Origin: Yuukianura sp. NJ FZ-2021
Lineage: Eukaryota
Direction: 5' to 3'
Length of the DNA stretch: 64,000 nucleotides
Assembly (NCBI GenBank): GCA_046563655.1
Contig: CM102285.1
Coordinates: 6,200,001 to 6,264,000, forward strand
Shown: piece by piece, positions 20,341-43,690 of the stretch
Layout of the letters: every line of letters begins with the position of its first letter
How positions within the stretch are numbered: position 1 is the first letter of the stretch
Notes under the pieces: model-generated
What the model saw: only the letters and a program-made list of their open reading frames with translations
Told to the model about the DNA's origin: nothing
Database searches by the model: none
Translations under genes and position numbers: made by a program

Positions 20341-21980
20341 TTTCTTCGACTTTCTTTGATTCTACGCATGCGATGATTCACAAAACGCTAGAAAAACAAA
20401 ATATTCATATATTTATCCATACTTACTTATACAATACGTACACTTTTTTATATTTTAAGAAACCTGGCTTCTATCAACTGAAGGAGTTGAACAGCCGCAA
20501 GTATGTCACAGTGTGTACTGTACATGATAAAATTGCATATGCCATGAACCTTCGGGATTATATTATTTAAAGAAACAAAAATTTTGAGTTTTCAAGATGA
20601 CGAATTCCTTGATGATGTGTTCGACTTTTTAAACAGGAAGGTATGTGATTTTCGGGAATACAGAAATTAATTCAAGAAAAATATTTCAAATTAAAGCAAT
20701 TATGTGTTAGGCAAAAATTTAGAAATTCGAAACCTTACATAACGAGTTTCATGGAATCGTGAATTAAAAACTGTTAGTACAATACCTGCCATCTAAAGTG
20801 CAATTACTAAACCTGCTAAACACGTTGGGTGTGGACTACATCATGGCATTCAGCTGCTGGACAAAATTGCTGATTTAGTAATTCCGGTTTAGTTAATCTG
20901 TTTAATTGTGTGGCAGTTTCTTGAGGTTTCCCTATCAAAAATATTTATTAAGCCTTCAAAACTAGTATTAGTTAAGTTACCCCTTACCACAGCATCAGAA
21001 GTAATTTTTTTTATACAAACCTGTTCTAACATAAACTAAATGGGTTACAAGTTAAAGTTTCGAAACCTGACATGACCGACCCACCTAACAAGAATAAACG
21101 ACACAGATATAATCAATTTAAGTCAAACCAGAAGTTGAGCATTGGCCAATTGGCAGTTAGCAACAAAATACTTTCAACCACTTACCAAATCCCTTGTTAA
21201 TTAATTTGAATTTTAATTAAGCCATTAATTTAATGAGTCTTTACTTTCATGGTATGCATAATAAACCTCAAGGACAACACACCTGGAAGCATTGGTGAAC
21301 TACGGTATAAGCTTATAAAAAGTCAGTAAAAAAAGTGAAGATGGTTTTGTAGAAGCTGTCAAAAATAGTTTAAGTACATTTGTAGGGTTAAACAAACTGA
21401 TCACAGTATTTTTTCCCCAAAAATGCAAAATTTCAATTTTTGTTTTCAATTTCAATTTGCAATACATTGTATTGGCTAGGAGATTATCGGTAACAGCAGA
21501 AATGGAGTTGGAAGGTCGGAAAGTTACAAAAAACTAGAAACAATGTTATGCAGTTTTTGGATCATCTTGTTTTGGCGGTTATAATCGAAACTACAGCGAA
21601 TACGCTGTAAATTTGTTTGAAAGTACGAGGTAGTTGCAACAGAAATTGTGAGTATACTGAAAGTAATCAAACAGAAGCGGCCAGTGCATAGTCTCATCCT
21701 CATTAAACCAATTTGCATACTCTCAGTTTTTATTAACTGGTTTTATGGTCGATTTTTTTAAAGTTTAAAATTTAAAACAAGAAACCTATAGTTGTTAGAA
21801 AACACGCCAATTTAGTTCCACCCATTTCAGATTTCTCTGTTCATTTCTGCATATTTGGTGCCTTACCAGTAACCACAGTCAATATAAATTTAGTTTAGTT
21901 CTATCTCCAGCAGCATCCACAAGGTCTCTGTTTCTCCAGCTCCATTCGTGTCAAAAGCAAAGTAGTGCCGGCAGAGCAAA

Positions 21981-23000
21981 ATGGCGGATAGCAAAGTGGC
22001 CCAAGACAAACCAAAGACAAAAACATCACCTAAAGGATTTCGAAAACACGTTAGACGCTTACAACTAGTTTTTAAAGCAATTCACAATTTTGGCGAATCG
22101 TTTGAAAAGCACAGCCGATTTGTGCATGACCTTAACGACCAGTACTTAACCCCAGCCCTTGAACGTATGAACATTCAACAAAATTCAAATATTTTCGATT
22201 ACGGAAGCCGAAATGGAGTACTCACACTTGCCAAACTTGTTCCACTGGCGGAAGAAAAAAATTTGAAAATTTTTGCCACTGAGGAATCTGCGACACAGCA
22301 TCAAGAGGCACTTGCAAATCATCCGCATGACAGAATTACGTATATAAATGAAGACATTATGAGTGAAAATTTTTCTCTCAAAGACAAAAAATTTCCAGCT
22401 GGAATTTCGCTCTACTACCTTCAAAACCGGAAGGACTACCGCGCTGTCCTTGAAAAATTATATAATATTTTGGAAGATGGTGGCAAATTTTGTTTGTTCG
22501 TGGCGACCATGGTGGAAGACTATTTTCAATTCGCCAAAATGTTACAAGATAGTACAGAGTGGAAGGCTTTGGGAGATCAACTTGCAATTCCGGATTGGAT
22601 TTTGGCGCGCTGGGCTGGAAGAGATCATATAGAAATTCTTAAGAATGCTGTGACTTCAGCTGGATTCGAAATCAAAAAATTTCAACTTGTTGATAATTAC
22701 ACCATATTTCAAAGCAAAAAGGACTGTGCTGGTGGGTTATATTTCTAGATCTTGTTTTAAAATAGTTTTAAAATATTTTTAGAAAGTTCTTTTTTTATTT
22801 CAGAGTTTTTATTGGCTGCTGGTATGGCCGACATTGCGGAGGGTTTGCCAACTCCTGAAGCATACAAAAAACTGGAAGCAGAATATACGCAGTTTTTAGA
22901 TGAACGTGTAACGGAAACGTGTGGACGTGCTTGTGGGGCAGGTCCAAAGCGACATCGAATGAACTACCAAGTCGCACTATTTGACCTTCAGAAAAAGTAA
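21981..23000 (+). CDS. Class I SAM-dependent methyltransferase-fold protein, JHAMT-like (copy 1), 2 exons
   Basis: Exons 21981-22731 and 22804-23000 join in frame. Motif I-like IFDYGSRNG; ISLYYLQ; LEKLYNILEDGGKF. Confidence 0.75.
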
Positions 23001-23953
23001 CTGCCATTCGTCTCCATTAAATAATCCCCTCGGAGGTGCAATTTTAGTTGTACTTTATTTTGACTGAGTGACGACGGCATTCTCCTCCAGAAGACAAAAG
23101 CAACCGCCATTCTGGTGTGTATCTGATCATTTTATGTTAAGTTTACAGTTTGGGAAAAGAAAGTGGAGGAAATTTTGAAAACTTCAGAGTAGAATAGCCG
23201 ACGTAAAAACAACATTAAAAATTTTAATTACATTCAATTTCACTCATGCAATACTGATTAATTATCAACAAAATGTCCGACATAAAACATTTTAACATTT
23301 TTAAGTGCTGTAACAAATTTACAAAAAAGTTCCAACATAACCCAAATTGGCTACAAGTTAAAGCTGCAAAACCTGTGACATGAAACGAGAAGGATAAAGG
23401 ACACCGACATTGTCAACTGACGTCGAAAATACTAGAACTTGAACATTGGTCAATTTTCAGTTAGCTACAAAATACTTGTTGCTACTTATCAAATACCTTG
23501 TTAATTACTTTTGGTTTCAATTTTAATTAAATCACACATTTAATCAGTCTGTGCTCTCAATGTGGTCAGTTATCGTCTACTAAAATTCAAGAATAACACC
23601 CATGAAGGCAATGCAATGGTCAGCTACTTTTAAAGGCTTTTAAAAAGTGAAAAAAAAACAATCGTAAGTCGAACAATTCCGCTTTCAGTTTATGCTTCTC
23701 ATTGATGCTGCTACTGAATAATTGTATAGGCCACTCAGTTCTATCTTCGAACCAACATAACTGCATAATAGTTTTCCTACTTTGTACTAAAGTACATCGC
23801 AATAAAAATTACATAAAAACTAACTGTAGCAACAACTGTCGAACAATTCACATAATTGAAGGTGGTTATCTCATGGAATATTACTGGAATAGGATGACAA
23901 GAGCATCACAAAGTAGTAACGTTGATCCCACCGCTTCTTTACACGCTGAAAAT

Positions 23954-25998
23954 ATGACACTTAAATGCAAAAGAATTTGCATAACTCAAATCAATTTGCA
24001 TAGGGCAGCTGCGGCGGCCTCTTCACTATGCAGAATGCTAATGTATGAGAGTACTTACGTAGCTCTCATACAGGAGCCAAAGACACAAAAGGATAGCGTG
24101 TGCTATTTGGATAAAAAAGGCTGTTATTACGTCAAATCTGGCGAAAGGCCGCGCGCATGCGTGGTAGTATCGGATGGGTTAGACGTTTGGCCTATACTAG
24201 ACATATCAGACAAAGACTGTATGGCTATTAAACTAACTTGCGGTGGCAGCGAATTAGTATTAGCTTCCATATATTTTCCTTACGATGGTACAGTAGAGTC
24301 TGCAACTGTAACAAAACTAATTCAATATTGCAAAAAAGCTGAATTACCACTGATTATTGGCTGCGACTCAAACGCACATCACGTGCTATGGGGTAGCACT
24401 GACAGTAATTCAAGGGGTGAACAATTACTAGATCTTCTAGAACAGAACGATTTACACGTAGTAAACAAAGGACATAAACCAACTTTTGTTACAAGAAGCA
24501 GAAGGGAGGTAATTGACCTCACCATTGCTTCAACTGAAGTTCTTGGGTTAATAACAAAATGGAGGGTAGGGGATGAAGAGTCCTTCTCTGACCATAGATA
24601 CATAAAATGGGAACTTGGTCTAGAAAGCCCCAAAAATGAATTTTACCGAAACAAAAGAAAAACTGAATTTGACTACTACAACTTTTTAGTTGAGGAGGAA
24701 CTTCAGAATGTGGAAATGACTCAACCAACAAATGTTGAGCAAACCGATAGGGCAGTTAATACTGTCACTGAAATTCTAACAAAATGCTTTGAAAGAAGCT
24801 GCCCGTTAAAACGGGTACGCAAAACTGGACCAACGAAAAGCTATTGGACGCCAACCCTCACATCAATGAGGAAAGCTTCCAGAAAGCTACATCGTTTAAC
24901 GCAACAAAATAATTATTCATACGAATCTTGGGTGCTGTACCAGGATTCACGCAATAAATACAATGCAGAACTGCGAAATGAAAAGCGCAGAGCCTGGAGA
25001 GACTATTGCAGTCAAGTGGAAAAAGTTCCACAGGCCTCCAGGGCAACCAAAATACTAGCTGGGGACAGAGTCATAGCTCTGGGTCCCATACAGCTAGAGA
25101 ATGGTAGTTATACTGCCTCACCAGAAGCAACTTTAGATTGCCTCCTAAATCATCATTTTCCTAATGACCCGCTTGCTCAAAGTGAGTTAGCGGGCATAAG
25201 TTACAATACTGATGGACCGTCACATGACACCGAGACCATCGACAAAATTGTTAGTGATTCAAAAATACTAGCATGCATAAACAGTTTCCAGGCATACAAG
25301 AGCCCTGGGCCAGACAATATATTTCCAGCTTTACTACAAAAAGCTCCACAAAAAATGATAAAATATCTTAACTTAATAGCCCGAGCCTGTTTACAACTTG
25401 GATACACTCCAAGATTGTGGAAAGTGGCTAGGGTAGTTTTCATACCGAAACCAGGAAAAGACAGCTACACTAAAGTTGGATCCTGGAGGCCTATTACACT
25501 GACATCATTCCTCTTAAAAGTTATTGAAAAACTGATAAATAATTATATCAAAACACCGGATGTTGTAGCCAAGCTAGAACAAAATGGACAATATGCCTAC
25601 CTTAAAGGACGTAGCTGCGACTCTGCCCTGCACAACCTGGTGGGCAGAATTGAGCGCTCACTAAAATCCAGTGAGCATGCTTTAGGCATGTTCCTGGATA
25701 TAGAGGGGGCGTTCTCAGCAGCAACATTCAAATCTATGCTCCAAGCACTAGATCGATTCAAAATTAACAAGACGGTTATCAAATGGACATCGTCAATGTT
25801 AACAAATAGAACTGTATATAGTGAACTAAATGGAAAAGCTATACGCAGGACTGTACAGAAGGGATGTCCACAAGGGGGAGTTCTTTCTCCACTTCTGTGG
25901 AATATGGTTCTAGATGAACTACTGTATATACTAAAGATTAAATTCCCTCAGATAAACACGCAAGGGTTTGCTGATGACGTTTCCTTGCTACAATGTGG
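23954..25998 (+). CDS. Outer LINE ORF2, 5' part: AP endonuclease plus RT up to FADD
   Basis: QINLHRA, LIQEP, IGCDSNAHH, IDLT, SDHRYI; KSPGPD, WRPITL, FLDIEGAF, GCPQGGVLSP, FADDV. Confidence 0.9.
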
Positions 25999-26761
25999 CA
26001 CAGTATAAAATATTCGAAAATTTTGAGACAAAATTTTTTTGGATCGTTTTTTTGCAGAAAGCTATAGATTATACCTAGTACTAATCCGAAATACCGAAAA
26101 AAATTCACCTCGGGCGACTTTATCCCGAAAAACCCGAAAAAACCGAAATCCGGGTATTTTGCACTTCCGGTTAATTTTGGTCGGGTTTTTTCAATTTGTA
26201 TCATTAGATCGTTATAAAAAAGTGCTAAGTTTCAAATTTCAGGTCAATATGTCAAGACATGGCGGAGTTACACCGTTTTAACCGAATTTCGGTGTCAACT
26301 TTGACATGTTCTCCCGGGTCAACCAGAGGCCAGAGCGATGAACCTAAGGTGTCGTTGGAAAGCTCTCACCTTTGGGAACAAATTATCTCTCATGACTATC
26401 TCTCTACGAGTGGTGGAATTTGAGATAAATCGATTTAAAGTGACCTCTGCAAAAATGGTCTGTTATGAGGGGATAGTAATGTCAAAAAGTGGTAGAGTGA
26501 AATTTAGCGAAAAATCACATCTAAAGCACTAAAGCATCTAAAACTTTCAGTTGGTGGTAAAATTTAAAGCAGTAACACATGTTTATAACCATAGTAGTTT
26601 TATGTTACCACTCATAAGCAATATTTTGTATTAGTAATAAAAGTACTTAGGTTCAGTTTAGCTGGTGTTTCATTGTTGAGCGCACTTGGGAACTTCCCCC
26701 AAGGCCCTGCCAATGCCCATTGTTTGATCCGTAGATCGAGGCTAGGAGTTAGTCCCTCATG

Positions 26762-26857
26762 GCACGCTTTGATAACCCAGGTAGCATCTGGAAGCACGCT
26801 TTGATAACCCAGGTAGCGTCTGGAGGCACGCTTTGGTAATCCAGGTAGCTTCTGGAA
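26762..26857. repeat. Three tandem 32-bp units downstream of the Transib ORF
   Basis: GCACGCTTTGATAACCCAGGTAGCATCTGGAA-like units start at 26762, 26794 and 26826. Confidence 0.85.
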
Positions 26858-26866
26858 AGTCCAAGC

Positions 26867-29323
26867 TTAAAGCACTTCTTCCGAGTCGAGTTCCACATAA
26901 TTTTCTTCGGTAAGATCCTCAAGCGGATCTGAATCTTCAACAGGAATTGACGTGCTGGGTGCCATTGGAGTAGCTAGTAATCCTAGCACTTCTGATGGCA
27001 AGCTTGGACGCTTGTTTTTTGCCCGTCTAAGCTTGACACTAATCGACGAAATAAATGGGTCAGATGTATCCATCGCAAAGTTAAAGATGTCTGTCATATT
27101 ATTTTTTTCACTTGATTTCCTGGCATGGTGCTCCCGATCACTTCTATAAAATTTGTTTCTGGACTCCCCCGCTTCCTCTCCGAACATTCCGATTGGCAGT
27201 ATATGCGAGGAGCAAATCTCTGGCCCGTGGATTAAGACTTTGTGTAAGGTAGCTGACATCGGGTACCATTCATAGAGTTCCACGTATCTGGCTGCTACCG
27301 ATAAGCAATAATTTTTGAATTTCTCGATGTCCAGCGGTAGATGACAATTGATTGCCGTTAACACTGTATACAACATACGCATTAGGCCTTCGTCCAACCC
27401 AAGTATTCTGGCGAAAACTTGATAGTTTTGAAATGCTCTTCTTGCAGTGTTACCGTCATTTGAAGATCCACCCCTTGGAGAAATTCCGTCCACATTCAAC
27501 CCAAGTTCATTCAAAATTTCCTCGCGAATTCTTTGTTTCCGATTCGACACATCGCTCACCATTTGTTTGTTTTTGTTGTCGATTCGCCAACAACGGTAAT
27601 CAAGCTTATACGCAATGTGGAGGCAGTTCTCCAGCGTTCGAATCCTAGCATGCAAGGGACTTAATCCATGTTGCCATGCATCGTGTTTTATTTGAAATGC
27701 GCTGGTTCCAATATTGTTGAGCTTATTGAACAAGGATGGAGTTGCCTTGCACATAGGACATGCCTGGGTTGACTTGGTGTTAGTTACAATTGACAACACC
27801 TTTCCATCAATTATAGTAAGGCTTAAACTGTAGGAAATAGACAGGGTTTTATTGTTTTCGAGATCAAAATCGTTGGAATTCAGAGACTCAATCTCAGCTT
27901 GCACTCTTTCCTTTTCAGAGTTCACAAGACTTGCGTCTTCCTTAGCGAACTGAAGCTTTAATGGCCTGCAAAATCTAACCGATTGTGGGGACGGGTTTTG
28001 CCATAGAATGGCATCCGTCTCCATACATCTCAGGCGGAGCGGTATCACGGTTGTAGCAAAAAGTGTTGATCTATCTTTTTGGTTGATATTTTTGATTTTG
28101 TACTTTGACTGGCCTCCACTTCCATCAAAACCCCAGGAACAAATAAGCTCCGCAGACATATCTGAAGGAAATGAGGCCAATACTTGTCCTTGCGTTGCCA
28201 CTATGCGCGCAGCAGTGTGTTGTAAAAGTGTTTGGAGTGGAACGCACACCGATACTTCTTCCCCGTTGTAACTTGGCTCACATGGCCTGCAGGCTCGCTT
28301 CACCAATGCAACGCGATAATACGGCGGGTAAAGCTTGGAACCAACAGCAAGGGCTGAAGACCGTATCCCTTCATATTGCGACACAGTTAGCCTCTGGTCT
28401 AGCAGCAACGCTAACGCATTCTCGTCCGAATATGTGCCCACTTCTTCTTTAGAAGCTAATGATGACAACAGCTTTCCCGCCAAGTTTTCGTTCTTGCTGA
28501 GCATTGTCAAAAGCTTTGACAGCTCCGTCTTTCCCTTTCCCTTCAACGTGCGACTCGTCGCAGAGAGCAGAAGGGGAGTGGACCACCCCTCCTGCTGCTC
28601 CACGCTTAAGCTTGTGTAGCGGTCTTGGGTACGTTTTGATTTTGCTTTGAAATCAGGCGTATCAAGTGTTAGTTTCCGTTTAGCTGTGCTTCCGATGTGG
28701 GATTCCTCGGAATCCTTTCGCTGTGGGGTAGTTGGGAGGTGAGGTGGTAACCGAACTGCATGGGGCATCACCGCGGACTCGAATAAATCAAAGTCAAACT
28801 CTGAATTCAGCCAATCAGCATACTTTTTCTTAAAATTCGCTGTCTTCCGTTGGCAGCCTTGGTGTTTTTTCTTGAAGTTTTTGTACAATTTTTCAACCTC
28901 AGAGCGTAATGAGTTTGTTTTATCAAAACTCAAGGTACTAGTGAGCTTGGAGGTAATGTACCTCAAACAGGCTTCTACTGGGTCCAGCTTTTCGTTTAAG
29001 AAGATTTCTATGAGTGTTGAATTCTTTAATGGAGTTGCCGCCGCAACACTCCTCGTGCTGTCCGTAAAAGCCGAACCGGATGGTGTAACGACCACCTGCT
29101 CATAGCTTTCAAAAAGCACTACAGGCTGAGCGTGACCTGTAGTGGTGAGGGCGCCATCCCCCACTTCACATGTTGGCGAGATTTCGCATGAGCCAGGCAG
29201 GTAGCTCGCCTCTCCTGCCCCCCCTCGCTCTACATCCGTCGGTCGGGGCGCCGACGGATATCCCCCAGAAGGGCCGGGCAAGCCCTCCTGAGGCAATTGA
29301 CCATGGGTCTGTGACGGCTCCAT
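26867..29323 (-). CDS. Transib transposase (RAG1-core homologue), uninterrupted 818 aa
   Basis: WGFDGSGGQ (D1), WQNPSPQSVRFCRPL, TIIDGK (D2), CPMC, GLSPLHARIR, NDGNTARRAF, TLHKVLIHG, GEEAGESRNK (E), HARK. Confidence 0.93.
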   Translation of the reverse strand: MEPSQTHGQLPQEGLPGPSGGYPSAPRPTDVERGGAGEASYLPGSCEISPTCEVGDGALTTTGHAQPVVLFESYEQVVVTPSGSAFTDSTRSVAAATPLKNSTLIEIFLNEKLDPVEACLRYITSKLTSTLSFDKTNSLRSEVEKLYKNFKKKHQGCQRKTANFKKKYADWLNSEFDFDLFESAVMPHAVRLPPHLPTTPQRKDSEESHIGSTAKRKLTLDTPDFKAKSKRTQDRYTSLSVEQQEGWSTPLLLSATSRTLKGKGKTELSKLLTMLSKNENLAGKLLSSLASKEEVGTYSDENALALLLDQRLTVSQYEGIRSSALAVGSKLYPPYYRVALVKRACRPCEPSYNGEEVSVCVPLQTLLQHTAARIVATQGQVLASFPSDMSAELICSWGFDGSGGQSKYKIKNINQKDRSTLFATTVIPLRLRCMETDAILWQNPSPQSVRFCRPLKLQFAKEDASLVNSEKERVQAEIESLNSNDFDLENNKTLSISYSLSLTIIDGKVLSIVTNTKSTQACPMCKATPSLFNKLNNIGTSAFQIKHDAWQHGLSPLHARIRTLENCLHIAYKLDYRCWRIDNKNKQMVSDVSNRKQRIREEILNELGLNVDGISPRGGSSNDGNTARRAFQNYQVFARILGLDEGLMRMLYTVLTAINCHLPLDIEKFKNYCLSVAARYVELYEWYPMSATLHKVLIHGPEICSSHILPIGMFGEEAGESRNKFYRSDREHHARKSSEKNNMTDIFNFAMDTSDPFISSISVKLRRAKNKRPSLPSEVLGLLATPMAPSTSIPVEDSDPLEDLTEENYVELDSEEVL

Positions 29324-30154
29324 GGCCTCGCCCTCGCCTTCTCTGGAGAATGGTTACCGCAAGGGGTTTCTTTAACGAGGGCGGACCCCTTCCCTTGCGA
29401 CCATTCTCCTTCATCGAAGGACGAAGGTTGGTACATTCAGACAAATATTTGTTCTTTCTTGTTTACAACAATAAAGTTTCTAAAAATTACTATTGTGCTA
29501 CACATGTGTTACTGCTTTAAATTTTACCACCAACTGAAAGTTTTAGGTGCTTTAGTGCTTTAGATGTGATTTTTCGCTAAATTTCACTCTACCACTTTTT
29601 GACATTACTATCCCCTCATAACAGACCATTTTTGCAGAGGTCACTTTAAATCGATTTATCTCAAATTCCACCACTCGAAGAGAGATAGTCATGAGAGATA
29701 ATTTGTTCCCAAAGGTGAGAGCTTTCCAACGACACCTTAGGTTCATCGCTCTGGCCTCTGGTTGACCCGGGAGAACATGTCAAAGTTGACACCGAAATTC
29801 GGTTAAAACGGTGTAACTCCGCCATGTCTTGACATATCAATCAATCAATCATCAGTTTATTTGACTTGGCCGTTGCCCTATCAATTACAGACCTGCAGCT
29901 CGTTTAAATTGTAAAGAATCAGTATAACCTAGTCAAAATGGTAAAATGGATCAAATGAAAGTAAGAGTGTAAGAGTCGAGGTGTGAGAAATTACGTGAAG
30001 TTAAATTAACCTTAAGTATGGAATTATGCTATGGTCAATTAAGTAAAATAGGTGCATAGTCCTTAGTAGAAATTATGAGGGTAAAAAGGGCAAAAAGTAT
30101 TAATTTGAGTAGTGGGGGAAGAATTCTGCAATGGGTTAGAAGCTTGCGATGAGG

Positions 30155-33100
30155 TTACGATGGTGTTCCCGGATCCAGCGTTGGCTCGAACATTGATAGC
30201 ACTCTGAGGCTCAAATTTTGTAGGTTTTTAGTGAATGTGGTCTCGTTGATGTGCGAACTGACCCAGACAATTGGACAGTGGTTCGGCGGGATGTGCAATT
30301 CGTTCCTGTGAGTATTAGTCTGTGGACAGGCCCAAAGGGCGTGATAATAGGACAGTTGGTCCCCACAAAAACTGCAGTGTTTTTCGTTGAAGTGGCCGAG
30401 ATCCAGAAATTTCCGGTTATAGTATACTTGATTCATGTTTAGTCGGATCTGCATAATCATCCTGGTGAGGTGTGCTGGGAAACGCTTGGAAAATATTTCT
30501 TCTGCTGGGAATTCTTCCGCGAGAGTCGAGTAATGTGGTATACAACTGCTCAACAATGCTTTTCTTTTGTCTGCTTCAGTGTAGAAGTTGGCAAGGTTTT
30601 TAATTATTGATTTTGTTTTTGCTCTGATATTATTAATATTTCCACAATCATAGGCACCTTCTTCCCCGATTTGAGCAAGTGCAGCTCTGAGCTGCAAGCA
30701 CCAACTGTATTTTGTGTCAGGGTAAAGTGAGGTGACTTTCCTTAATTGTAGATAAGCGTTTTTGGTGAGGTCAGAGCAAGATTTGGAGTGAAATTTTGTG
30801 AACAGTTGCCAAGTTCTTCTCACAATTTCGAATTCCAATGGAAGGGACTTCGTCTCTAGCCGTATGAAGTATCTTGGTGTGGTAAAAGGTAGGTGAAAAA
30901 CTCGTTTGTAGAAGTTTTGTTGGACCGTTTCAATGGCATTTGAGTGGAGTATACCCCATGTTTCACAGTTGTATAATGTTGTTGATTTTACCAGCGAGTT
31001 TAGCAGCATCTTAACGGTCCAGAGATCAATGTAAGTTTGTTTCTTCAGCATGCTAAAAACAGCTCCCTGTGCTGAAGTGCCTTTTTCCACTGCGGCCCTT
31101 GCGGCTTTTTGAAATGTCCCGTTTGATTGAAAAATTACGCCAAGATACTTGTACTCTGTAACTGTTTCGATCCGTGTTCTATTCCAAAAGAAGAGATCGT
31201 CTTTTCGCATCCTCCCCGATCGACGGAAAGCTACTACCTTTGTTTTGGAAAGGTTGACTTTGAGGCCTCTGGATTTGAAAAAGTTGGATGCGATTTTGAT
31301 TTTCTCTTGCAGTAGCTCTTTGGACTGGGCTGTGATTACAAGGTCATCGGCGTATAGAAGGATGTGGATAATGCGGGAGCCCAGAGTGAATCCTTTTAGC
31401 AGTGAATTTGAAAATATGTTTACCAGATCCTCAATGAACAAGTTGAAAAGAGTGGGGCTGGCAGATTCACCTTGAAGCACTCCCTTCATTATTTTAATTG
31501 GCTCCGTTGGGCCGTCGCTGGTATTAATTTGGGCCGTGGCGTTGTGATAAAGGGACTTGAACACATTGAGAAATTTGTTTGAGACACCCATATTTTCCAG
31601 TACTTCCCAGAGGAGAGAGTGGTTTGGAGTGTCGAAAGCCTGTGACAAGTCTACGAAAGCGGCATATAACTCCTTTCGTTTCAGGAGCTGACATTGAATC
31701 ATAGACATCAGTGTAATTGTGTGATCAGTGCATGATCTGGATTTTCGGAAGCCTGCTTGAAAGTCTGAAATTTTATGGTTGGAATTTATCCAATTGACGA
31801 GTCTTGCATTCAACACTTTGGTAAATAGTTTTAGAATTGTGTTCATCAGTGATATTGGACGGTAATTTTGTGGTAGGTCTTTTGGGCCTTTTTTATACAG
31901 TGGAAGAATTCGAGCATTACACCAATGAGTTGGTAGTATCCCATTCTGTAGGATATTTTGGAATAGTGTAACTAGGAAGATTAAAACATTCGGAGTAGCA
32001 GCTTTCCAGAGTTCATTCGGGATTCTGTCGGGACCTGTTGCTTTGCGCGTCTTCAATGTCTTTGTTGCCATCCTTATTTCCAACGCTGTTACGTCGCGAT
32101 CTAGTATTTCATTCTCTACTAACGGCTTAAGCGCGAGTCGCTGGGGAGGTATGTCACGAACTTTAAAGAGGTCCTGAAAGTGTTGAAACCAAGTTTCCTT
32201 CGGGATCTTATCTTGTGGGGTTGAATGCGTTGTGAAGTATTTTACCGCCTTCCAGAAACTAGCCGGATCCTTTGATGCGTGGAGCTGGGAGACAAAGTTC
32301 GAAACGAACACCGATTTCTTATTTAGTAGCTGTTGTTTATATAGTTTCTGTGTTTCTAGGTAGAGATTTGCATACACCGCTTTATTCTCTCCGCTACACC
32401 TTCTCAGCTTGCGCAAGGCATTATTTTTCTTCCACTTCAAGGAGTTTAGCTCGGCATCAAACCATTTCGGCTTCGGTATTACTGGCCTTGGTTTTGCCTT
32501 TTTATAGTTACCAGTTGCCTTGGCTGTTTCGAGGATATTTTGTTGTAGTTGAAGGCTGGCTTCGTTTGCATCATCGAATTCATAATTCAGTAAAGCCTCG
32601 AGCTGTTTATAGAATGTGTGTTTTTCCAGTTTCTCAGTGGGGATTATTATCTTCTCTTGGCGTAGGCTCTTGTTGTTCTGAGGTTGGTTGACCGTTTTTT
32701 GGAGTGAGAGGAGCAATGGGAAGTGGTCCGAATGATGCCAGTCTAGTATTTTCAAGTTCCGAAGGTTGTCTCGACAATTGTGCGATGAGAGAACAAGATC
32801 TACTACGCTGCACCCTGCATTTGCTGGATTTACCATGGTTATTTCTCCAAGTTCATCTCCAGTTATTGCTCCATTGCAGATTGTGAGGTTACAGGCTGCA
32901 GCAGCTGCTAGTAGGTTTCTCCCATTTCCATTTACCAACTTGTCCTTGCTTTTTCTTTTATATAATGGAGTGGTGTTTCTCTCCCCAGTTCTTGAGTTTA
33001 AGTCTCCAACTAGTAGTGCTGGTTTATTTGTGTATTTCAAAATTTCAAGCGTCTCCGTCACTAGTTTTTGGTTGGATTTGTCTGGCGGGATGTAGGCGAA

Positions 33101-33415
33101 TAGCAGGAGAAATTGTGATTTATGGTTTTGGACGGCTAGTAGTATTGAGAACTCCGTTGTCCCTAGCAATGAAACTTCTGTGTCTATTGAGCTGTGCCAG
33201 CCATAGATGAATCCACCGTAAGGACGACCTCTGGATTGTTTTTTAGCTGGGATTTGATGAACGGTATACTGTTGCTGTAATTTGTCGTTTTTGTAACTTT
33301 CCCATTGCATTGATTCCGATAGGCAGAAAAGAGAAGGTTGGAGCGTCAGAAATTCGTCCCAAAAAGTAGGTCCTAGGTTATTTACACTTTTTGCATTCAA
33401 ATAGAAAATTGTCAT
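30155..33415 (-). CDS. Inner LINE ORF2: AP endonuclease, reverse transcriptase and C-terminal CCHC, 1086 aa
   Basis: YLNAKS, LSES, VGDLNSR, VVDL, SDHFPL; KATGPD, NYRPISL, QAGFR, FVDLSQAFD, GVLQG..SPTLF, LYADD, YKYLG; CSFC..HALWAC. Confidence 0.95.
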   Translation of the reverse strand: MTIFYLNAKSVNNLGPTFWDEFLTLQPSLFCLSESMQWESYKNDKLQQQYTVHQIPAKKQSRGRPYGGFIYGWHSSIDTEVSLLGTTEFSILLAVQNHKSQFLLLFAYIPPDKSNQKLVTETLEILKYTNKPALLVGDLNSRTGERNTTPLYKRKSKDKLVNGNGRNLLAAAAACNLTICNGAITGDELGEITMVNPANAGCSVVDLVLSSHNCRDNLRNLKILDWHHSDHFPLLLSLQKTVNQPQNNKSLRQEKIIIPTEKLEKHTFYKQLEALLNYEFDDANEASLQLQQNILETAKATGNYKKAKPRPVIPKPKWFDAELNSLKWKKNNALRKLRRCSGENKAVYANLYLETQKLYKQQLLNKKSVFVSNFVSQLHASKDPASFWKAVKYFTTHSTPQDKIPKETWFQHFQDLFKVRDIPPQRLALKPLVENEILDRDVTALEIRMATKTLKTRKATGPDRIPNELWKAATPNVLIFLVTLFQNILQNGILPTHWCNARILPLYKKGPKDLPQNYRPISLMNTILKLFTKVLNARLVNWINSNHKISDFQAGFRKSRSCTDHTITLMSMIQCQLLKRKELYAAFVDLSQAFDTPNHSLLWEVLENMGVSNKFLNVFKSLYHNATAQINTSDGPTEPIKIMKGVLQGESASPTLFNLFIEDLVNIFSNSLLKGFTLGSRIIHILLYADDLVITAQSKELLQEKIKIASNFFKSRGLKVNLSKTKVVAFRRSGRMRKDDLFFWNRTRIETVTEYKYLGVIFQSNGTFQKAARAAVEKGTSAQGAVFSMLKKQTYIDLWTVKMLLNSLVKSTTLYNCETWGILHSNAIETVQQNFYKRVFHLPFTTPRYFIRLETKSLPLEFEIVRRTWQLFTKFHSKSCSDLTKNAYLQLRKVTSLYPDTKYSWCLQLRAALAQIGEEGAYDCGNINNIRAKTKSIIKNLANFYTEADKRKALLSSCIPHYSTLAEEFPAEEIFSKRFPAHLTRMIMQIRLNMNQVYYNRKFLDLGHFNEKHCSFCGDQLSYYHALWACPQTNTHRNELHIPPNHCPIVWVSSHINETTFTKNLQNLSLRVLSMFEPTLDPGTPS

Positions 33416-33517
33416 GTTGATTAAAATTAGCTCGCTGCAGGGTGGTGTATAGAGTACGGAAACTCTATTGTTTGTCTTTGTCTGTTTGTATTGTGTGTTG
33501 ACAGGGCGGCCGCGTCC

Positions 33518-34270
33518 TCATTTTGGGGTTGGGAAGGTGGATCGAAGAGTAGAAGGGAATGACTTAGTGGCTGTTGAGCTGAATGATGATGTAGATTCCC
33601 GAGGACGGTTTCCTTGTCCATTTTGTCGTGATTCTCGGTTCCGTTGTCGTTCGGTCCTGGTTTCAATTGTGAGGTCTTCAGTGATAGAGTAAATTTCTCT
33701 ATTTTGGATGAAGGTCTTCCGCAACTGAAGAGCTTGCATGCGTTGTGGGTAGGTGGCGATGCGCACCTTAATTGGGCGGGGCTTGTCAGACGACGGGTTA
33801 AATTTTCCAATCCTGTATGCATCTTCTACATTGACTCGAACTTGATAGTGGTTGAAGAAATCGTTCGTGACGTTCGTGGTATTTTCATTTGAAGCTTCTG
33901 GAAGTCCGTGGATCAGAACGTTGTTCCTTCTTAGTTCGTCTGTGAGACGAGAGTTCATTTTTTTCAGTTGCTCGATTTCTTTTTGCTGCGTATCAGTTTT
34001 CGATTGTAATTCTTCGATCTGTTCTTGGTATTTCTCAAGTTTGGACTCAATGGAGTCACATCTCGTGTCAATTTTCGTATCAATATTTGCAAGCATTTTT
34101 GTCATTACTGCCATTAAATCATCGTTCGAGACATTTGATCGTTTCTGGGCTGGCTCACTTCCAGCGTTGGGTTCTGATTCGGCAGCTCGTTTACTTCCCT
34201 TGCTTTGTGGTAGGAACGGTAGAGTGGTTTGAGACATCTTCTCAGACACGGGAGAACGTGAAATTGGCAT
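33518..34270 (-). CDS. Inner LINE ORF1: coiled coil plus RRM-like nucleic-acid-binding protein, 250 aa
   Basis: Heptad-rich segment, then RRNNVLIHGLPE, AYRIGK, RPIKV and ITEDLT, as in LINE ORF1 proteins. Lies 5' of ORF2 on the same strand. Confidence 0.85.
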   Translation of the reverse strand: MPISRSPVSEKMSQTTLPFLPQSKGSKRAAESEPNAGSEPAQKRSNVSNDDLMAVMTKMLANIDTKIDTRCDSIESKLEKYQEQIEELQSKTDTQQKEIEQLKKMNSRLTDELRRNNVLIHGLPEASNENTTNVTNDFFNHYQVRVNVEDAYRIGKFNPSSDKPRPIKVRIATYPQRMQALQLRKTFIQNREIYSITEDLTIETRTERQRNRESRQNGQGNRPRESTSSFSSTATKSFPSTLRSTFPTPK

Positions 34271-34329
34271 CTACTTTGACTTGAGTTACCTTTGCCTTTC
34301 TAACGGTTTCCCTCACCAGGTTACGTTTC

Positions 34330-34463
34330 GGATTACCTTAACCAGGTTATCCTGTGGATTACCTTAACCAGGTTATCCTGTGGATTGCCTTAACCAGGTT
34401 ATCCTGTGGATTACCTTAACCAGGTTATCCTGTGGATTACCTTAACCAGGTTATCCTGTGGAT
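34330..34463. repeat. Five tandem 26-bp monomers forming the LINE 5' end
   Basis: GGATTACCTTAACCAGGTTATCCTGT units start at 34330, 34356, 34382, 34408 and 34434, with a partial unit at 34460. Confidence 0.92.
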
Positions 34464-34728
34464 TGTCTTGACATATTGACCTGAAATTTGAAACTTAGCA
34501 CTTTTTTATAACGATCTAATGATACAAATTGAAAAACCCGACAAAAATTAACCGGAAGTGCAAAATACCCGGATTTCGGTTTTTTCGGGTTTTTCGGGAT
34601 AAAGTCGCCCGAGGTGAATTTTTTTCGGTATTTCGGATTAGTACTAGGTATAATCTATAGCTTTCTGCAAAAAAACGATCCAAAAAAATTTTGTCTCAAA
34701 ATTTTCGAATATTTTATACTGTGTGTGG

Positions 34729-36388
34729 TAAGGATATGTCGACCCTTATAAACATAATGCAGCAAAGTCTGAACGCTGTTGATAAATGGTGCAAAACGGT
34801 ACGATTGGGGATCAACCCCAATAAAATCGAAGCCGTACTATTCACTAACAGTAGAAAAATACCAAACTCTAAACTACAACTGAATAGTATAAGCATCCCT
34901 TACAACAAGGTAGTCAAGCACCTTGGTGTATGGCTTGATTCTAAACTGACATGGTCAAAACACTGTAAGACAAAAGCACTTGCAGGAACTATCACTCTAC
35001 ATCAGTGTAAGAGAGCGATATCCCCAACTTGGGGTCTCAATCCCAAAATATGCCACTGGATATACACTGCTATAGTTCGACCAAGGATCACGTGTGTCTG
35101 CTGGGCGACGGCAGTGACTAAACAAAATACATTAGCCATATTGCAAAAGGTGCAAAGGGGGGCACTGCTCAACATAACAGGGGCAATGCGTTCCACACCA
35201 ACTGCGAGTATGGAGTGTATTATTGACATACGCCCAATTGACCTGCATATCATGACACTATGCATTAAAACAATGCTAAGGTTGATTGAACACAAAGATT
35301 GGCTACCATGGAAATCGATGGGGCTACTGAAAAGAAATACACACATAAAGCAATGTGAGGAATGGAAAAATAAACTTCTACTTCTCCTGCTCCCAATCGA
35401 AACAAAAATAATCAATAAAACAGAACCAAAATACAATATAATAATAAAAAACCGTAAACTCTGGGAAAGAGTCGGGGAGCCGAAGCGTAGCGCTGAGGTT
35501 CTCCAGATCTTTACCGACGGATCAAAAATAAACTCCGCTGGCGCTGCCTATGTAGTGCTCAATGGAAACGCAATACTCCAAAGTGAAATCCATCCACTTG
35601 GATACAGAACAAGTGTCTTTCAGGCTGAGGCGTACCTACTACTCTCAGCCGCCACTTGGCTTGAAAACACACTGTCTGCAGACAAACCAGAATATAAGCA
35701 CATTACACTCGTAGAAATATACATAGACAACCAAGGAGTTGTGAAAAGCCTAATGGGCAAAAGTGATGAGAGTACAACCCTCATCTACGAATCCCACAGA
35801 ACTCTTAACAAAATTAATTTGATATGTCCAGTAAATGTTAACTGGATACCAGCACATAGTGGATATGTAGGCAACGAAATAGTAGACAGCTTAGCGAAGG
35901 CGGCTGCTTACACAAAATTTGTCGGGCCAGAACCGATATTACCAATCCCATACAGTACAATAGTAACTGAAATCAGGGACTATGCCAGAACCTGCCATGC
36001 AAAAAGATGGCAAGCACAACAAGGATGTACAGACTCCAAAAAAGTACTTACAACAATATGCACTAAAAATGCTAAACACTGCTTAAAACTGAATAGAGCA
36101 GATCTAAAATCTCTTACAGCATTGATCACAGGACATGGACAATATGCCAAACACCTCCACAGGATGGGAGTCGCGGAATCGCCGTTATGTCCACACTGTG
36201 GATATAAGGAAGAGACTCGCGATCACCTACTGATGGAATGTGAGGCACACATGAACCCAAGACTCAAGGCTTTTGGGATATACCTCTTGAGAAAAGAGGA
36301 TCTTAAAAATACTTCTCTCTCTGAACTAACGGAATTCCTCCGACAACTAAATAGAGCGAAAGTTAGAGGTGGGAGAGTTGATCCCTGA
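34729..36388 (+). CDS. Outer LINE ORF2, 3' part: RT C-terminus, RNase H and CCHC
   Basis: Removing the insertion and one TSD gives FADDVSLLQCGKDMSTL in frame. KHLGVWLD; IFTDGSK, VFQAEA, IYIDNQG, WIPAHSG..GNE.VD.LAK; CPHC..ETRDHLLMEC. Confidence 0.9.
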
Positions 36389-36980: not shown

Positions 36981-37888
36981 TGTTGGCAATTTACCTTGTA
37001 AATGGACCAAAGTCATAGGCGATTTTTTAAAGTTTAAAAATAAAAAAACTAGAGTTGTTACAAAACACGTTAATCTAGTTCTACCCATTTCAACTCTTTC
37101 TGTTCATTTATATATTTGATTTGGCCCATGATCACACTCATTAAAAATTTGGTTTAGTTCTGTCCTCAGCATGCAGAAGGTCTCAGTTTCTCAAGCTCCT
37201 TCGTAAAAAAAGCAAGTAGCAAAGTAGGTAGCCAGGCAAACAAAGCATAATGGCTGACAGCAAATTAGCCCAAGATAAACCAACGACAAAAACATCACCT
37301 AAAGGATTTCGAAAACACGTCAGACGCATACAACTAGCCTTCAAAGCAATTCACAATTTTGGTCAATCATTTGAAAAGCACAGCAGTTTTGTACATGACC
37401 TTAACGAGAAGTATCTAACCCCAGCACTGGAACTTTTGAACATTCCGCAAAATTCGAATATTTTCGATTATGGAAGTCGAAATGGAGTATTCACAGTTGA
37501 CAAACTTGTGCCGCTGGCCGAAGAAAAAAATTTGAAAATTTTTGCTATTGAGGCATGTGCAGCACATCATCAAGATGCACTTGCACATCATCCGCATGAC
37601 AGAATTACGTATATAAACGAAGATATTTTGAGTGAAAATTTTTCTCTCAAAGAAGAAAAATTTGCAGCTGGAATTTCACTCTACTACCTTCAAAACCGGA
37701 AGAACTACCGCGCTGTCCTTGAGAAATTGTATAATATTTTGGAAGATGGAGGAAAACTTTGTTTGTTCGTGTCAACCATGGTGGATGACTTATTTCAATT
37801 CGTCAAAATGTTACAAGACAGCACAGAGTGGAAGGCTTTGGGAGATCAACTTACAATTCCGGATTGGGTTTTGGCGCGCTGGGCTGGC

Positions 37889-40800
37889 TAGAGTTTCACG
37901 GCTCTCGACTCCCTGACGACTCCGGAGCCGCGACTCTCGGCTCGACTCCGACTCGGCTCTTTGGTACAGAGTCGAGCCGGCCAGTCGGCACGGGCTCTGA
38001 CTCTATGAAAGAATGGGGGCCGAGAGTCACTCCGGCTCCGGCTCTGACTCTGACTCCGTAATGTTTCAGAGAGCCGGGAGTCACACATGTACAATTAAGC
38101 GCAGGATTTAAAATAAAATTATGCAATTCTTCAAATTACATCATTAAAGCTAAAGAAATCCACTTCGCCTTCTTGCACCTTAACTTTTCTGAGTGACAGT
38201 CACTACAAACAATGGATTCTGAAGACAATCCGGTTCCACTAGTGGAACTTAGTGACGATGAGGCAAGTTCTTCAGGAGTATCAGTGACCACTCAGAGCAA
38301 CAGCTCTACTTTGTCTGGAACGTCATCTACTAAGTCAAAGTTCGTTTGTCATTTTGTGTATCGAGAAGACCAAAAGAAGTTTAAATGTAACTATTGCAGG
38401 TAATTGAACTCAGAACTGTAAACTTTAGGGAATCTGAATATTAAGAGTATAATCGTATGGACTACTGACTTTCATAGCACGACTATTTTGAAAAAGAAAA
38501 ATGGCTCTACTTCTAACTTGGGACGTCATTTAAAGTCGGTACATCCCAGAGTATACGAACAGCTGCAACCAAATGCTTCCAAAGATGCCAATAAAGGAAA
38601 AAGTATTGTGCAGTACTTTGAGGCTGTCAAACAGGTAGCAAGAAAAGTTCCTTCAAATCGAGAGTTATCGAATATCGAAAATAACACAAGTTTAATACTT
38701 TATAAGGAATTTACCCAACACGAATTCGAGAAGCGATTGATGGAGTTCATAATTCTCACGGATCAACCGTTCAGCGTTGTAGACTCTCCATCTTTTCACA
38801 ATCTTTTCAACTTCCCGAGTTTCAAGGCAAAAATTCCTGGCAGAAATGGAGTAAAATCTAGAATTGACGCAATGTTTGACGCCGAGCGTACCAGAATACA
38901 AGCTCTAACAGCGGTACGTTCAATGTCATAACATAATTTATGGATTCTGTTCTGACTTCTCTAACTTTTATCTTCAACTTTTAACTTTTAACTTTTAACT
39001 TCAGGAAATTGACAGCAAAGTTGCACTGATTCTTGACTGCTGGACTTCAGCTACCCAAGTTCCATACCAAGGAATTATTGTACGTTGGATTGATCAGGAC
39101 TGGGAACTTAGAGAAGAAATCTTGGATTTGGATATTGTTCATGGACATCACACAGGCGAAGCCTTATGCAAATCCCTCGTTCGTGTGTTGGATGATTTTG
39201 GTTTAACTGCGAAGATACAGGGAATCACTACCGATAACGCTACGAACTGTGACACAATGTTTGAAATGCTTAGCTCAACATTGACTAACAAGGTAAAATT
39301 ACCCGTACGATATATACCTTGGTATTGATCTTGTTTTCAAACAGGGAATATCGTTCCACGAGGGAAACTCTAGGGTGAGATGTTTGGCCCATATAATCAA
39401 CTTGGCATGTCAAGATGCTCTTACATGCCTCAAGGCCATTATGTCAACAGACGATGTTAACGAATTTATTGAATCCGATAACGAAGAAGGTACGACGATT
39501 GCATCCGAAAGTCACGCGTCTACATACGGGAAGGTAAATTCAAGATTATTTTGATATTGTATAATGAGAACACATAACAATGTTAATTTTTATGTTGTAG
39601 TTGCGTTCCTCCATTATGAAAATACGTAGTTCGAGTATTCTAAAAGAATCGTTTGAAAAACAGTGTGAAATGAGTAAAGTCGCATGCAAATCCCTTCTTG
39701 CTGATGTTAAGACACGCTGGAACTCAACGTTTTACATGCTACGCAGAGCTGTAAAGATGCAAGTGGTAAGTTTTACTAATCGTTGAACTAAAAGCTTCAA
39801 TTGTTACGAATACATACTTTAGGCTCTGGACAACACTATGCGCAATGAGAAATTGAATCATCTAATTCTCGAGAATTCAGAATGGGCGACCGTAGGTCAG
39901 ATTGTGGAATTCTTGAAGGTAATAATATGTGGGTGTGCATCCCACTTCACACAAACTTTATGTGATCTTGATGCCAGAATTTGACTTTTTATTGCATTTA
40001 GCCATTCCAGAAAGATACTGTTCTCTTATCCAGCAACGCAGGACCGAACATGGCTGTTGCATCGGCAGTGTTTCTTCACTTGTATTCACATCTTGAAAAC
40101 ATTACGGTAATCTTTTTTGAACTTGAAAACCTTCAAAATGTTAAAATAATCGTAACTTTCCAGGAACAAAATGGGTATCAAGAGGATATTGTCTCTGCAG
40201 CACATTTGTCATGCGCAAAGCTAAACAAGTATTATCCAAAAACAGACGGACTTGTATATGTAATGGGAACAAGTAGGTCATGTAATTGCTATCGTTTTTT
40301 AAGTATTATATTAAGTGTATATACTACAGTTTTAGATCCACGGACGAAAATGAGTTTGTACTCCGCTAACCGGCAGCATTTTCCACCGCAGTTAACTAAT
40401 CGATATCGCAGGTTAATGCTCATTGTTTATTATAATTATGCCTTAGTAATACTTATGTTGCCTTGCATACGTCTCTAATGCATTATTTAGAGAGATTCGC
40501 AATTGTTGGGAGGAAAGATACAAGCCCACGGATAACACCGACGAACAGCCCCCATCAGATACGAAGAAAAAAACCACCCCTGGAGAATTTCTTGCCGCGC
40601 AAATTGGTTGCCAAAAAAAAGATAAACGGGATGAACTGCAGAAGTATTTAGATACACCGGTAGAAAACGATTCGGAACTTCTGAAAGGGAACTCGCTACT
40701 ATGGTGGAAGGTAAACACTAACTGCATTTTCACCCCTAATAACTACCACTCTTAATTAAAATAAGAACTGAACATTTTCAGGCGCAAGAAAAAATATTCC

Positions 40801-42677: not shown

Positions 42678-43690
42678 ATGGCCGACAGTAAAATGGCCCA
42701 ACATAAAGAAACAACAACAACGCCTAAGGGATTTCGAAAACATGTTAGGCGACTACAAATAGCTTTCAGAGCAATTCACAATTTTGGCGACTCTTATGAA
42801 AAGCATAGTAGCTTTGTACATGGGCTTAACGACAAGTATCTAACCGCAGCAGTTGAGCTTTTGAACATTCCGCAAAATTCAAATATTTTCGATTACGGAA
42901 GTCGAAATGGAATACTCACACTTGCCAAAATTGTTCCACTGGCGGAAGAAAAAAATTTGAAAATATTTGCCGTTGAAAAATGTGAAGCACATCATCTGCA
43001 TGCAGTTGAAAATCACCCGCATGACAGAATTACGTATGTGAACGAAGATATTTTGAGTGAAAATTTTTCTCTCAAAGACCAAAAGTTTCCAGCTGGAATT
43101 TCACTCTATTACCTCCAAACCCAGAAGAACTACCGCGGTGTCCTTGAAAAATTGTATAATATTTTGGAAGACGGTGGGAAACTTTGCTTGTTCGTGGTGT
43201 CCATGGCTGATGACTATTTTCAATTTGCCAAAATGTTACAAGACAGTACAGAGTGGAAGGCGTTGGGAGAGCAGCTTTCTATTCCGGATTGGATTTTGGC
43301 GCGCTGGGCCGGAAGAGATCATACAGAAATAATAAAGAATGCTCTGACTTCAACTGGGTTCGAAATCAAACAATTTCAACTTGTTGATGATTACACGATA
43401 TTTCAAAGCAAAGAGGGTTGTGCTGGTAGGTTAATTTTTTGAATAATCTTTTTCTTATAGTTTTCAACTATGTTTTGGAGATTTTCTTTATTTTAGAGTT
43501 TTTGTTGGCTACTTGCATGGCAGAAATTGCAGAGGGCTTGCCAAATCCTGAAGCATACAAAAAATTGGAAGCAGATTGTTCGCAGTTTTTAGAAGAACGT
43601 GCTACGGAAACGTGCGGACGTGTTTGTGGAACAGGTCCAAGGCGCCATCGATTAAACTACCAACTGGCGCTAATCGTCGTTCAAAAGTAA
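42678..43690 (+). CDS. JHAMT-like methyltransferase-fold protein (copy 3), 2 exons
   Basis: Exons 42678-43425 and 43497-43690 join in frame. Same intron position and motifs as copy 1. Confidence 0.75.

Follow-up and report, generated by a model that had tools for sequence, protein, structure and literature searches.

A 64,000-nucleotide stretch of the genome of Yuukianura sp. NJ FZ-2021 (contig CM102285.1, forward-strand positions 6,200,001 to 6,264,000) was analysed; it is called the window hereafter, and positions are counted from its first letter. The element under study is a Transib transposon, a member of the superfamily from whose transposases the RAG1 core is accepted to descend. The window very probably carries an autonomous Transib of 4,086 bp that inserted into a long interspersed nuclear element (LINE) and was later split by a second LINE. 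The first-pass annotation of this DNA had described the whole span 25999-34723 as one intact RAG1-like Transib. A plain 8.7-kb Transib is not what is found there, because the span consists of a 4,086-bp Transib and a 4,626-bp nested retrotransposon. The word "intact" held for the open reading frame (ORF) and for both cleavage ends, but not for the right arm, which is split by the nested LINE.

Borders, Target Site and Nested Elements

Including the nested LINE, the Transib spans 25999-34723 (8,725 bp), of which 4,639 bp are foreign; the Transib proper amounts to 4,086 bp after removal of the LINE and one copy of its 13-bp target site duplication (TSD). Plus-strand letters around the borders are ...CAATGTGG / CACAGTATAAAAT on the left and ...ATTTTATACTGTG / TGTGGTAAGG on the right, with the slash at the border. 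The element is flanked on both sides by the previously noted TGTGG (25994-25998 and 34724-34728), a TSD of the 5 bp expected of the Transib superfamily. The data used here were four public runs from two studies: X1, X2 and X3 come from one sample of organism A, and X4 from organism B. Contigs with an empty target site were found in three of the four (X1, X2 and X3). Their joint 25993>34724 skips 8,730 bp, that is, the 8,725-bp element plus 5 bp, and 5 letters fit both sides. The borders and the 5-bp TSD are therefore fixed independently of the window's assembly.

The Transib lies within a host LINE region (23651-36388, plus strand), which it interrupts immediately downstream of the reverse-transcriptase FADD box. 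The host non-LTR (long terminal repeat) retrotransposon ORF, delimited by Pfam matches and frame arithmetic at 23705-36388 (plus strand), encodes endonuclease, reverse transcriptase, RNase H and zf-RVT. Exo_endo_phos_2 and RVT_1 match its left part (23705-26008), whose last residues are ...FADDVSLLQCGTV and whose stop codon falls within the Transib; the frame at 34661-36388 carries RNase_H and zf-RVT. The halves 23705-25998 and 34724-36388 share one reading phase, and 8,730 is divisible by 3, so that one long host ORF is restored when the element is removed together with one TSD copy. The depth of the empty-site contig resembles that of the host LINE contigs (624.8 versus 621.2 in X1), and the contigs that skip 8,730 bp are other host LINE copies without the Transib. 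Since the host ORF is open on either side of the Transib, the host LINE would also be young. Three nested layers of mobile elements are thus present at the locus.

The innermost layer is a full-length non-LTR retrotransposon of 4,626 bp, foreign to the Transib (29838-34463, minus strand), which was delimited from its ORFs, Pfam matches, TSD and a contig joint. All its parts are on the minus strand: ORF1 of 250 amino acids (aa) at 33518-34270, ORF2 of 1086 aa with endonuclease and reverse transcriptase (Exo_endo_phos, RVT_1) at 30155-33415, 26-bp tandem repeats at the 5′ end (34315-34464) and a (GATT)n tail (29838-29851). Both ORFs are open. The LINE is flanked by a 13-bp TSD, ATATGTCAAGACA in minus-strand reading, at 29825-29837 and 34464-34476. 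These 13 bases occur once in the left arm of the Transib (26247-26259) and twice in the right arm; since they are doubled only in the right arm, around the LINE, this arm was once continuous and the LINE inserted later. In X1, a contig joint, 29824>34464, leaves out 4,639 bp, and 13 letters are compatible with either side. This joint was rejected as proof of LINE-free right arms, because the uninterrupted left arm has the same sequence; all it demonstrates is an uninterrupted arm in some copy besides that of the window. In X1, the bin with the 26-bp repeats (34315-34464) had a summed contig depth of 16,058, compared with 120-860 elsewhere; satellite-like arrays of the 26-bp unit may exist at other places.

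The Transposase

The transposase gene is a single, uninterrupted 818-aa ORF at 26867-29323 (minus strand), as the ORF list gives it. The only other ORF of at least 100 aa in the Transib part is a 116-aa antisense frame. Residues 295-787 correspond to the Transib/RAG1 core. In a phmmer search of the PDB, the protein matched HzTransib with E=5.3e-95 (residues 298-774), BbRAG1L with 1.2e-7 and vertebrate RAG1 with ~1e-4; a profile of 10 clade relatives gave 1.1e-168, 9.7e-16 and 1.5e-11, respectively. The AlphaFold model had a mean pLDDT (predicted local distance difference test) of 70.1, with the core mostly above 80. Foldseek matched the core model to HzTransib (6pqx_A) with E=1.7e-32 and TMt 0.87, and a VIA comparison of the model with HzTransib gave Z=36.1 and a root-mean-square deviation (rmsd) of 3.4 over 475 residues at 38% identity. 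The other VIA matches were RAG1 (Z 21-25) and BbRAGL (22.2), and the next family was P-element transposase (9.8).

The predicted DDE catalytic triad, D400, D506 and E720, aligned with D125, D224 and E435 of HzTransib, which the available text of a preprint (bioRxiv 10.64898/2026.08.26.747230) numbers as its catalytic residues. In alignment A1, D400 and E720 were invariant, and D506 was present in at least 90% of the rows. C522, C525, H694 and H699 form C-x-x-C and H-x4-H arrangements; A1 shows them conserved, and HzTransib and RAG1 have C, C, H and H at the aligned positions. As in RAG1, these residues would bind zinc. Thus the ORF, the triad, the zinc-motif residues and the RAG1-like Transib identity, all put forward in the first-pass annotation, were borne out, and the transposase homology and residues are those of the Transib superfamily.

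No RAG2-like gene was present among the ORFs of at least 100 aa between the arms, so that the convergent pair of RAG1-like and RAG2-like genes between terminal inverted repeats (TIRs), by which RAGL and ProtoRAG elements are recognised, was not found. Placement among Transib, RAGL and ProtoRAG was based on the gaps in E-values and Z-scores. Judged from these comparisons and the predicted structure, the protein is a Transib transposase in the strict sense and not a RAGL/ProtoRAG protein. PF26100 is a precomputed annotation on two relatives and was not among the Pfam matches here.

RSS-Like Ends and Their Conservation

The left end consists of CACAGTA (25999-26005), a 22-nt spacer (26006-26027) and ACAAAATTT (26028-26036). 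The right end, 34686-34723, is an exact inverted copy, with the nonamer-like block at 34686-34694 and the heptamer at 34717-34723; both spacers are 22 nt long (22/22). The recombination signal sequence (RSS)-like module that had been described could thus be read directly at both ends. Because the ends are identical (22/22), the element has no built-in 12/23 asymmetry. A CAC heptamer, a spacer of ~23 nt and an A-rich nonamer-like block, as in Transib-superfamily termini, are present at both ends. The Transib consensus of 38 bp is CACAATG-23-AAAAAAATC in the available text of Kapitonov & Jurka (2005, PMC1131882). At the level of sequence, the end architecture equals this consensus, published in 2005, and is not new.

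The ends of relatives were then compared. Among 77 related loci in metagenome contigs, the 43 of at least 2.5 kb were searched for inverted repeats flanking the gene. Such repeats were found in 12 of the 43, and 10 loci were of the CAC-ended type, with arms of 37-51 bp. The repeats of L024 were dropped as low-complexity sequence at contig ends. L008 (54-3603) has subterminal inverted repeats of 100-140 bp on either side (83% identity); its CAC termini were found by pattern, with a terminal repeat of ~32 bp. Perfect 5-bp TSDs were seen in six of the 10 CAC-ended relatives (L036, L043, L050, L053, L054 and L058), four of five letters matched in L004 and L017, and L011 and L021 had no match.

Near-identical termini were grouped, giving seven independent end types with the window included. 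A CAAAA-core block starting at position 30-32, usually after GG or AG, was found in six of the seven. The block is ACAAAAT in the window, L004 and L021, ACAAAAG in L011, CCAAAAT in the L036 group and GCAAAAACC in L050. The stricter pattern [AC]CAAAA occurs in five of the seven end types, with GCAAAAA instead in L050, and no CAAAA block was found in the termini of L008. In the relative loci, [AC]CAAAA has a background of 0.18% of positions, or ~0.7% per terminus for a four-position window. Spacers vary from family to family. Where relatives have short arms, their inverted repeat reaches only just past the block, which lies ~23 nt from the heptamer. The proteins of the relatives with the block are only 32-41% identical to the window protein. 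The nonamer idea had been made dependent on conservation of the A-tract among relatives; with the CAAAA core kept in six of seven end types despite differing spacers, the nonamer-like reading appears to hold within this clade.

Six loci (L036, L043, L053, L054, L058 and L017) form one family of 1.9-3.4 kb, some with in-frame stops, whose targets are CAGTG, CATTG or ACATG. These targets recall those of mosquito Transib-N1/N2 (CASTG/CAWTG in the available text of PMC1131882) and of Nozomi (CARTG in that of bioRxiv 10.64898/2026.08.26.747230), whereas the window TSD, TGTGG, is not of that type.

Long Inverted Arms

Repeat finding and alignment showed a left TIR of 603 bp (25999-26601, plus strand). 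The right TIR (minus strand) is divided into an inner part of 355 bp (29483-29837), which pairs with 26247-26601, and an outer part of 260 bp (34464-34723), which pairs with 25999-26259. In a global alignment, the left arm and the rejoined right arm differ by eight mismatches and one indel over 603 bp (98.5% identity). Five of the eight mismatches fall within the final 19 bp, and beyond 26601 the similarity is lost. The outer 584 bp contain just three mismatches and one indel, and the outer 260 bp of the right end differ from the left end by one mismatch and one single-base indel. The claim of nearly identical TIRs was therefore confirmed, the ~584 bp given for them being the nearly perfect outer part.

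At 603 bp, the arms are at least 12 times longer than the 37-51 bp of the 10 complete CAC-ended relatives. No Transib with ~600-bp arms was described in the full-text literature searched, Repbase and Dfam lying outside that search. The available text of Chen & Li (2007, PMC1852546) states that Hztransib, of 3,518 bp, "has long TIRs", with the TIR length in a figure only. The earlier description of the arms as atypically long is thus right relative to the 10 measured relatives and is weakened by the long TIRs of Hztransib already in print. The arm length is unusual among the measured relatives and not clearly unprecedented.

Contigs of the runs extend the arm well beyond 50 bp (26035-26582 in X3, 26213-26582 in X4, and 29502-29824 joined to 34464-34728 in X1). 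Within each run, the k-mer depth of the arm contigs exceeded that of the transposase contig by a factor of ~1.7-2.4 (323.8 versus 175.6 in X1, 120.4 versus 51 in X3 and 311.9 versus 180.5 in X4), which argues against the arms being another abundant repeat. At 29678, where the window arms differ from each other, the X1 arm contig has a third base, and it has two private differences in addition. Since it differs from both window arms, its source is another copy or allele. The long arms are a family trait and not private to the window copy.

The arms themselves offered few clues. With no match at E up to 0.1 in an Rfam search of 25500-35200, the arms are no RNA-derived repeat of a known kind. The sole internal regularity noticed was a cluster of the motif CCGAAA(A/T)A, four per 56 bp in each arm (26086-26141 in the left arm). 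The window contains 13 such motifs against 7.8 expected, eight of them in the two arms, and 5 of 100 shuffles reached 13. As candidate subterminal binding sites, these motifs were set aside, the clustering being suggestive and only weakly above chance. A scan for bacterial-type promoters and terminators was not above shuffles, and is irrelevant to a eukaryote. A promoter within the arm is a reasonable guess, with the right arm directly upstream of the start codon; if so, the left arm would drive antisense transcription.

The N-Terminal Extension

Residues 1-95 of the transposase are predicted to be disordered and are unconserved, and residues 100-175 and 225-297 form predicted helical modules common to the clade relatives. 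In most of these relatives, an AT-hook-like GRP (or GRK/GRT) motif and a basic stretch stand just before the second module. The GRP motif is absent from the window protein and from its closest relative (L002/P0001) and was lost there. The motif comparison covered loci L001, L023, L029, L004 and L032 and window positions 28650-28720 (residues ~205-225).

The possible relationship of this region to the RAG1 nonamer-binding domain was also considered. In the VIA comparison of the whole model, 4 of the 25 RAG1 entries listed (6b40, BbRAGL, set apart) aligned also over model residues 218-237 onwards, against RAG1 391/408 onwards, with rmsd 7.7-8.5. A profile of the module gave nothing significant against the PDB, the best match being a designed protein with E=0.058. 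Folded alone (pLDDT 69.5), the module matched unrelated helical proteins of the YqeY type best (Z 5.9), and RAG1 was not listed. A phmmer search with residues 96-300 against 1.84 billion representatives returned only two proteins at E up to 0.001. The N-terminal module is at most a candidate counterpart of the RAG1 nonamer-binding domain, suggested by the whole-model alignment but matched convincingly neither by profile nor by the fold of the module alone.

Variants, Copy Number and Youth

The X1 transposase contig (2,719 bp, on window positions 26810-29531) differs from the window at 19 sites and by one in-frame 3-nt deletion. X2 agrees with the window at many of these 19 sites, and the X1 and X2 patterns therefore indicate at least two variants of the transposase gene in one sample, which could be alleles of this locus. 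X4 also has a 2,719-bp transposase contig, with 27 differences from the window (~99% identity). The same transposase contig thus appears under two organism labels, for which shared ancestry and horizontal transfer are both possible readings. In X4, the Transib is covered and both LINEs have little or no cover; this hole proves nothing, and neither horizontal transfer nor LINE-free copies were argued from it. The 19 differences between the window ORF and X1 comprise 8 synonymous and 11 non-synonymous changes (558.7 and 1,895.3 sites, respectively), which gives a dN/dS of ~0.41 (one-sided binomial P=0.048). This is suggestive of constraint on the coding sequence.

Three 32-bp tandem repeats (26762-26857, plus strand) stand just 3′ of the transposase stop codon, and the copy number of this array, which adjoins 26670-26760, varies. 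Run contigs diverge or vary at the repeats (loose ends at 26760, 26762 and 26857; joint 26771>26867). After the shared stretch 26670-26760, contigs of X1 and X4 continue for 207-213 letters that do not match the window but have one consensus across the two organisms. In X4, such a contig has a depth of 464.5, compared with 180.5 for the transposase contig. The contigs that diverge at 26670-26857 may represent a related or non-autonomous element sharing this stretch. No further Transib copy was found by blastn within the 64-kb window, and in a viral contig collection 20 pattern matches included no true relative.

The open ORF, the 98.5% identity of the arms, the perfect TSD, the open ORFs of both LINEs and the presence of at least two variants make it plausible that the Transib is young and possibly active.

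Proposed Mechanism and Alternative Explanations

In the history that we favour, a cut-and-paste Transib entered the reverse-transcriptase region of a LINE, creating the 5-bp TSD, and a second full-length LINE later landed in the right arm. The single gene encodes a RAG1-like DDE transposase. By analogy with HzTransib, a dimer of this transposase would bind the ~38-bp RSS-like module at each end (CACAGTA, 22 nt and ACAAAATTT), nick at the CAC border, hairpin the flanking DNA, release the element and integrate it with a 5-bp stagger. Nick-hairpin cleavage by HzTransib is described in the available text of Carmona et al. (2016, PMC4840297), citing Hencken 2012. The remaining ~565 bp of each arm is an inverted duplication of subterminal sequence, for which a promoter, extra binding sites or no role at all are the candidates. 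Since the coding sequence and both ends are intact, the window copy could supply transposase and may still be able to move as an 8.7-kb unit.

Several observations count against this interpretation. The Pfam RAG1 model matches residues 689-747 only, with 17.7 bits, under the 25-bit cut-off. Nonamer use is not simply transferable from the model enzyme HzTransib, because in the available text of Carmona et al. (2016, PMC4840297) the Hztransib ends resemble the heptamer and hardly the nonamer. The signal of purifying selection comes from 19 sites. The depth of the transposase contig equals that of the variant-specific nested LINE contigs (51 versus 44-61 in X3), and the autonomous element may be of very low copy, possibly present only at this locus and its allele. 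The LINE breaks the right arm at 260 bp from the tip and stands 515 bp upstream of the start codon, so that expression or end-pairing of the window copy may be impaired. Neither an excision footprint nor a second insertion nor a transcript appeared in the data examined.

These points bear most directly on the explanation that the window copy is dead as a mobile unit, the LINE blocking end pairing or expression and leaving at most a transposase donor or a recent corpse. This explanation is favoured by the location of the LINE, within the right arm and 515 bp ahead of the start codon, and by the more than doubled length (from 4,086 to 8,725 bp). However, the outer 260 bp, with the complete heptamer-spacer-nonamer module, differ from the left end by just one mismatch and one single-base indel, the relatives manage with arms of 37-51 bp and the ORF is open; we regard a dead copy as possible but on balance unlikely. 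It is rather improbable that ACAAAATTT is a mere part of an AT-rich end with no nonamer-like role in transposase binding. The end is indeed AT-rich, L008 has no block, the window protein has no GRP motif upstream of the 225-297 helices, and the Hztransib TIRs show little or no similarity to the RSS nonamer in the available text of PMC4840297. Yet the block recurs in six of seven end types at 32-41% protein identity and with differing spacers, the inverted repeat of the relatives ends just after it, and the chance expectation is ~0.7% per end.

In favour of a private rearrangement of the window copy, or an assembly artefact, there is a single copy in the 64-kb window, and arms of 37-51 bp are the rule in the 10 complete CAC-ended relatives, with no exception. 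This origin of the long arms is very improbable, because contigs of X1, X3 and X4, the last under a different organism label, cover long arm sequence, their depth of 1.7-2.4 times that of the transposase contig is as expected from two long arms per element, and the X1 contig carries differences found in neither window arm. We give next to no credence to the idea that the gene is a RAG1-like one domesticated by the host. An intact ORF and a weak synonymous excess speak for it, but the gene is flanked by 603-bp inverted arms and a 5-bp TSD, other copies of the LINE in which it sits are without it, and it has neither introns nor a RAG2-like partner. A bolder interpretation than a Transib inserted in one LINE and split by another would see here a currently mobile lineage in which the 0.6-kb arms are family-wide and functional (as promoter, extra sites or self-regulating hairpin RNA) and the nonamer-like block is paired, unlike in HzTransib, with an extra N-terminal DNA-binding module; the element would then be a closer model of two-part signal recognition by RAG1, and the ~99% identity across two organism labels would reflect recent horizontal transfer. 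This combination seems to us improbable.

Neighbouring Genes

Three methyltransferase-like ORFs with weak Methyltransf_23/25/11 matches lie on the plus strand at 21966-22748, 37232-37891 and 42585-43442 and look like tandem paralogues; the pile of mobile elements sits between the first and the second. Further away, there are Kelch-repeat ORFs (55150-56661 and 57363-58274, plus strand), a 5′-nucleotidase C-terminal exon (61964-62893, minus strand) and a DUF7869 ORF (58525-59139, minus strand). The Kelch ORFs (55-58 kb) were rejected as a RAG2 partner, being 20 kb from the Transib, outside the arms and matched by generic Kelch models only. The 5′-nucleotidase exon has named relatives in springtails (Folsomia, 40%), fish and others, all at 46% identity or less. 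An open frame of 826 aa at 15519-17999 (plus strand) gave no Pfam match at E up to 0.001.

Discussion

The window element is a further member of the well-known Transib family and, as a genome feature, is ordinary. The classical fly and mosquito Transibs are 3-4 kb long, with a transposase of ~700 aa, 5-bp TSDs and 38-bp termini that are mostly symmetric and RSS23-like, according to the available text of PMC1131882. The window element fits this description with 4,086 bp, 818 aa, TGTGG and CACAGTA-22-ACAAAATTT at both ends, but its inverted repeat continues past the nonamer-like block to 603 bp. The metagenome and springtail relatives (P0001-P0015; L001-L077) have 32-50% core identity and share the N-terminal modules, the end architecture and 5-bp TSDs. 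They differ in having short arms of 37-51 bp and, in most cases, the GRP motif, whereas the window element has 603-bp arms and no GRP.

RAGL/ProtoRAG proteins and vertebrate RAG1 have in common with the window protein the core fold (Z 21-25), the catalytic triad, the zinc residues and the logic of a CAC heptamer. Their sequence similarity is far weaker (E 1e-7 to 1e-4 versus 5e-95), and the window element has no RAG2-like gene and symmetric ends. Hztransib, from Helicoverpa zea, is much closer, with the same core fold and family, DDE triad, C2H2 residues, a single ORF, a 5-bp TSD and CAC ends. To our knowledge, HzTransib is the only Transib transposase that has been studied biochemically and structurally. 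It reportedly lacks most of the nonamer-binding region. Its 489 aa, as given in the available text of PMC1852546, compare with 818 aa in the window, where ~295 extra N-terminal residues include two predicted helical modules. Moreover, the Hztransib ends have little nonamer similarity in the text available of PMC4840297, whereas the clade of the window element keeps the CAAAA block.

The Nozomi and Hayabusa Transibs have N-terminal helical domains, which Transib1 and Hztransib lack, and TIR and TSD architecture is labile within Transib, as stated in the available text of bioRxiv 10.64898/2026.08.26.747230. Their TSDs vary (5, 3 or 2 bp) compared with the 5 bp of the window, a comparison by the description in that text only.

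The terminal comparisons show that, as far as sequence goes, the heptamer-spacer-CAAAA architecture is conserved across a poorly sampled clade. A Transib with an intact coding sequence, such ends, an N-terminal extension and very long arms would serve well as a second test case for nonamer recognition and end pairing before the advent of RAG2, and its interest would rise if the long arms or the N-terminal module matter for end recognition.

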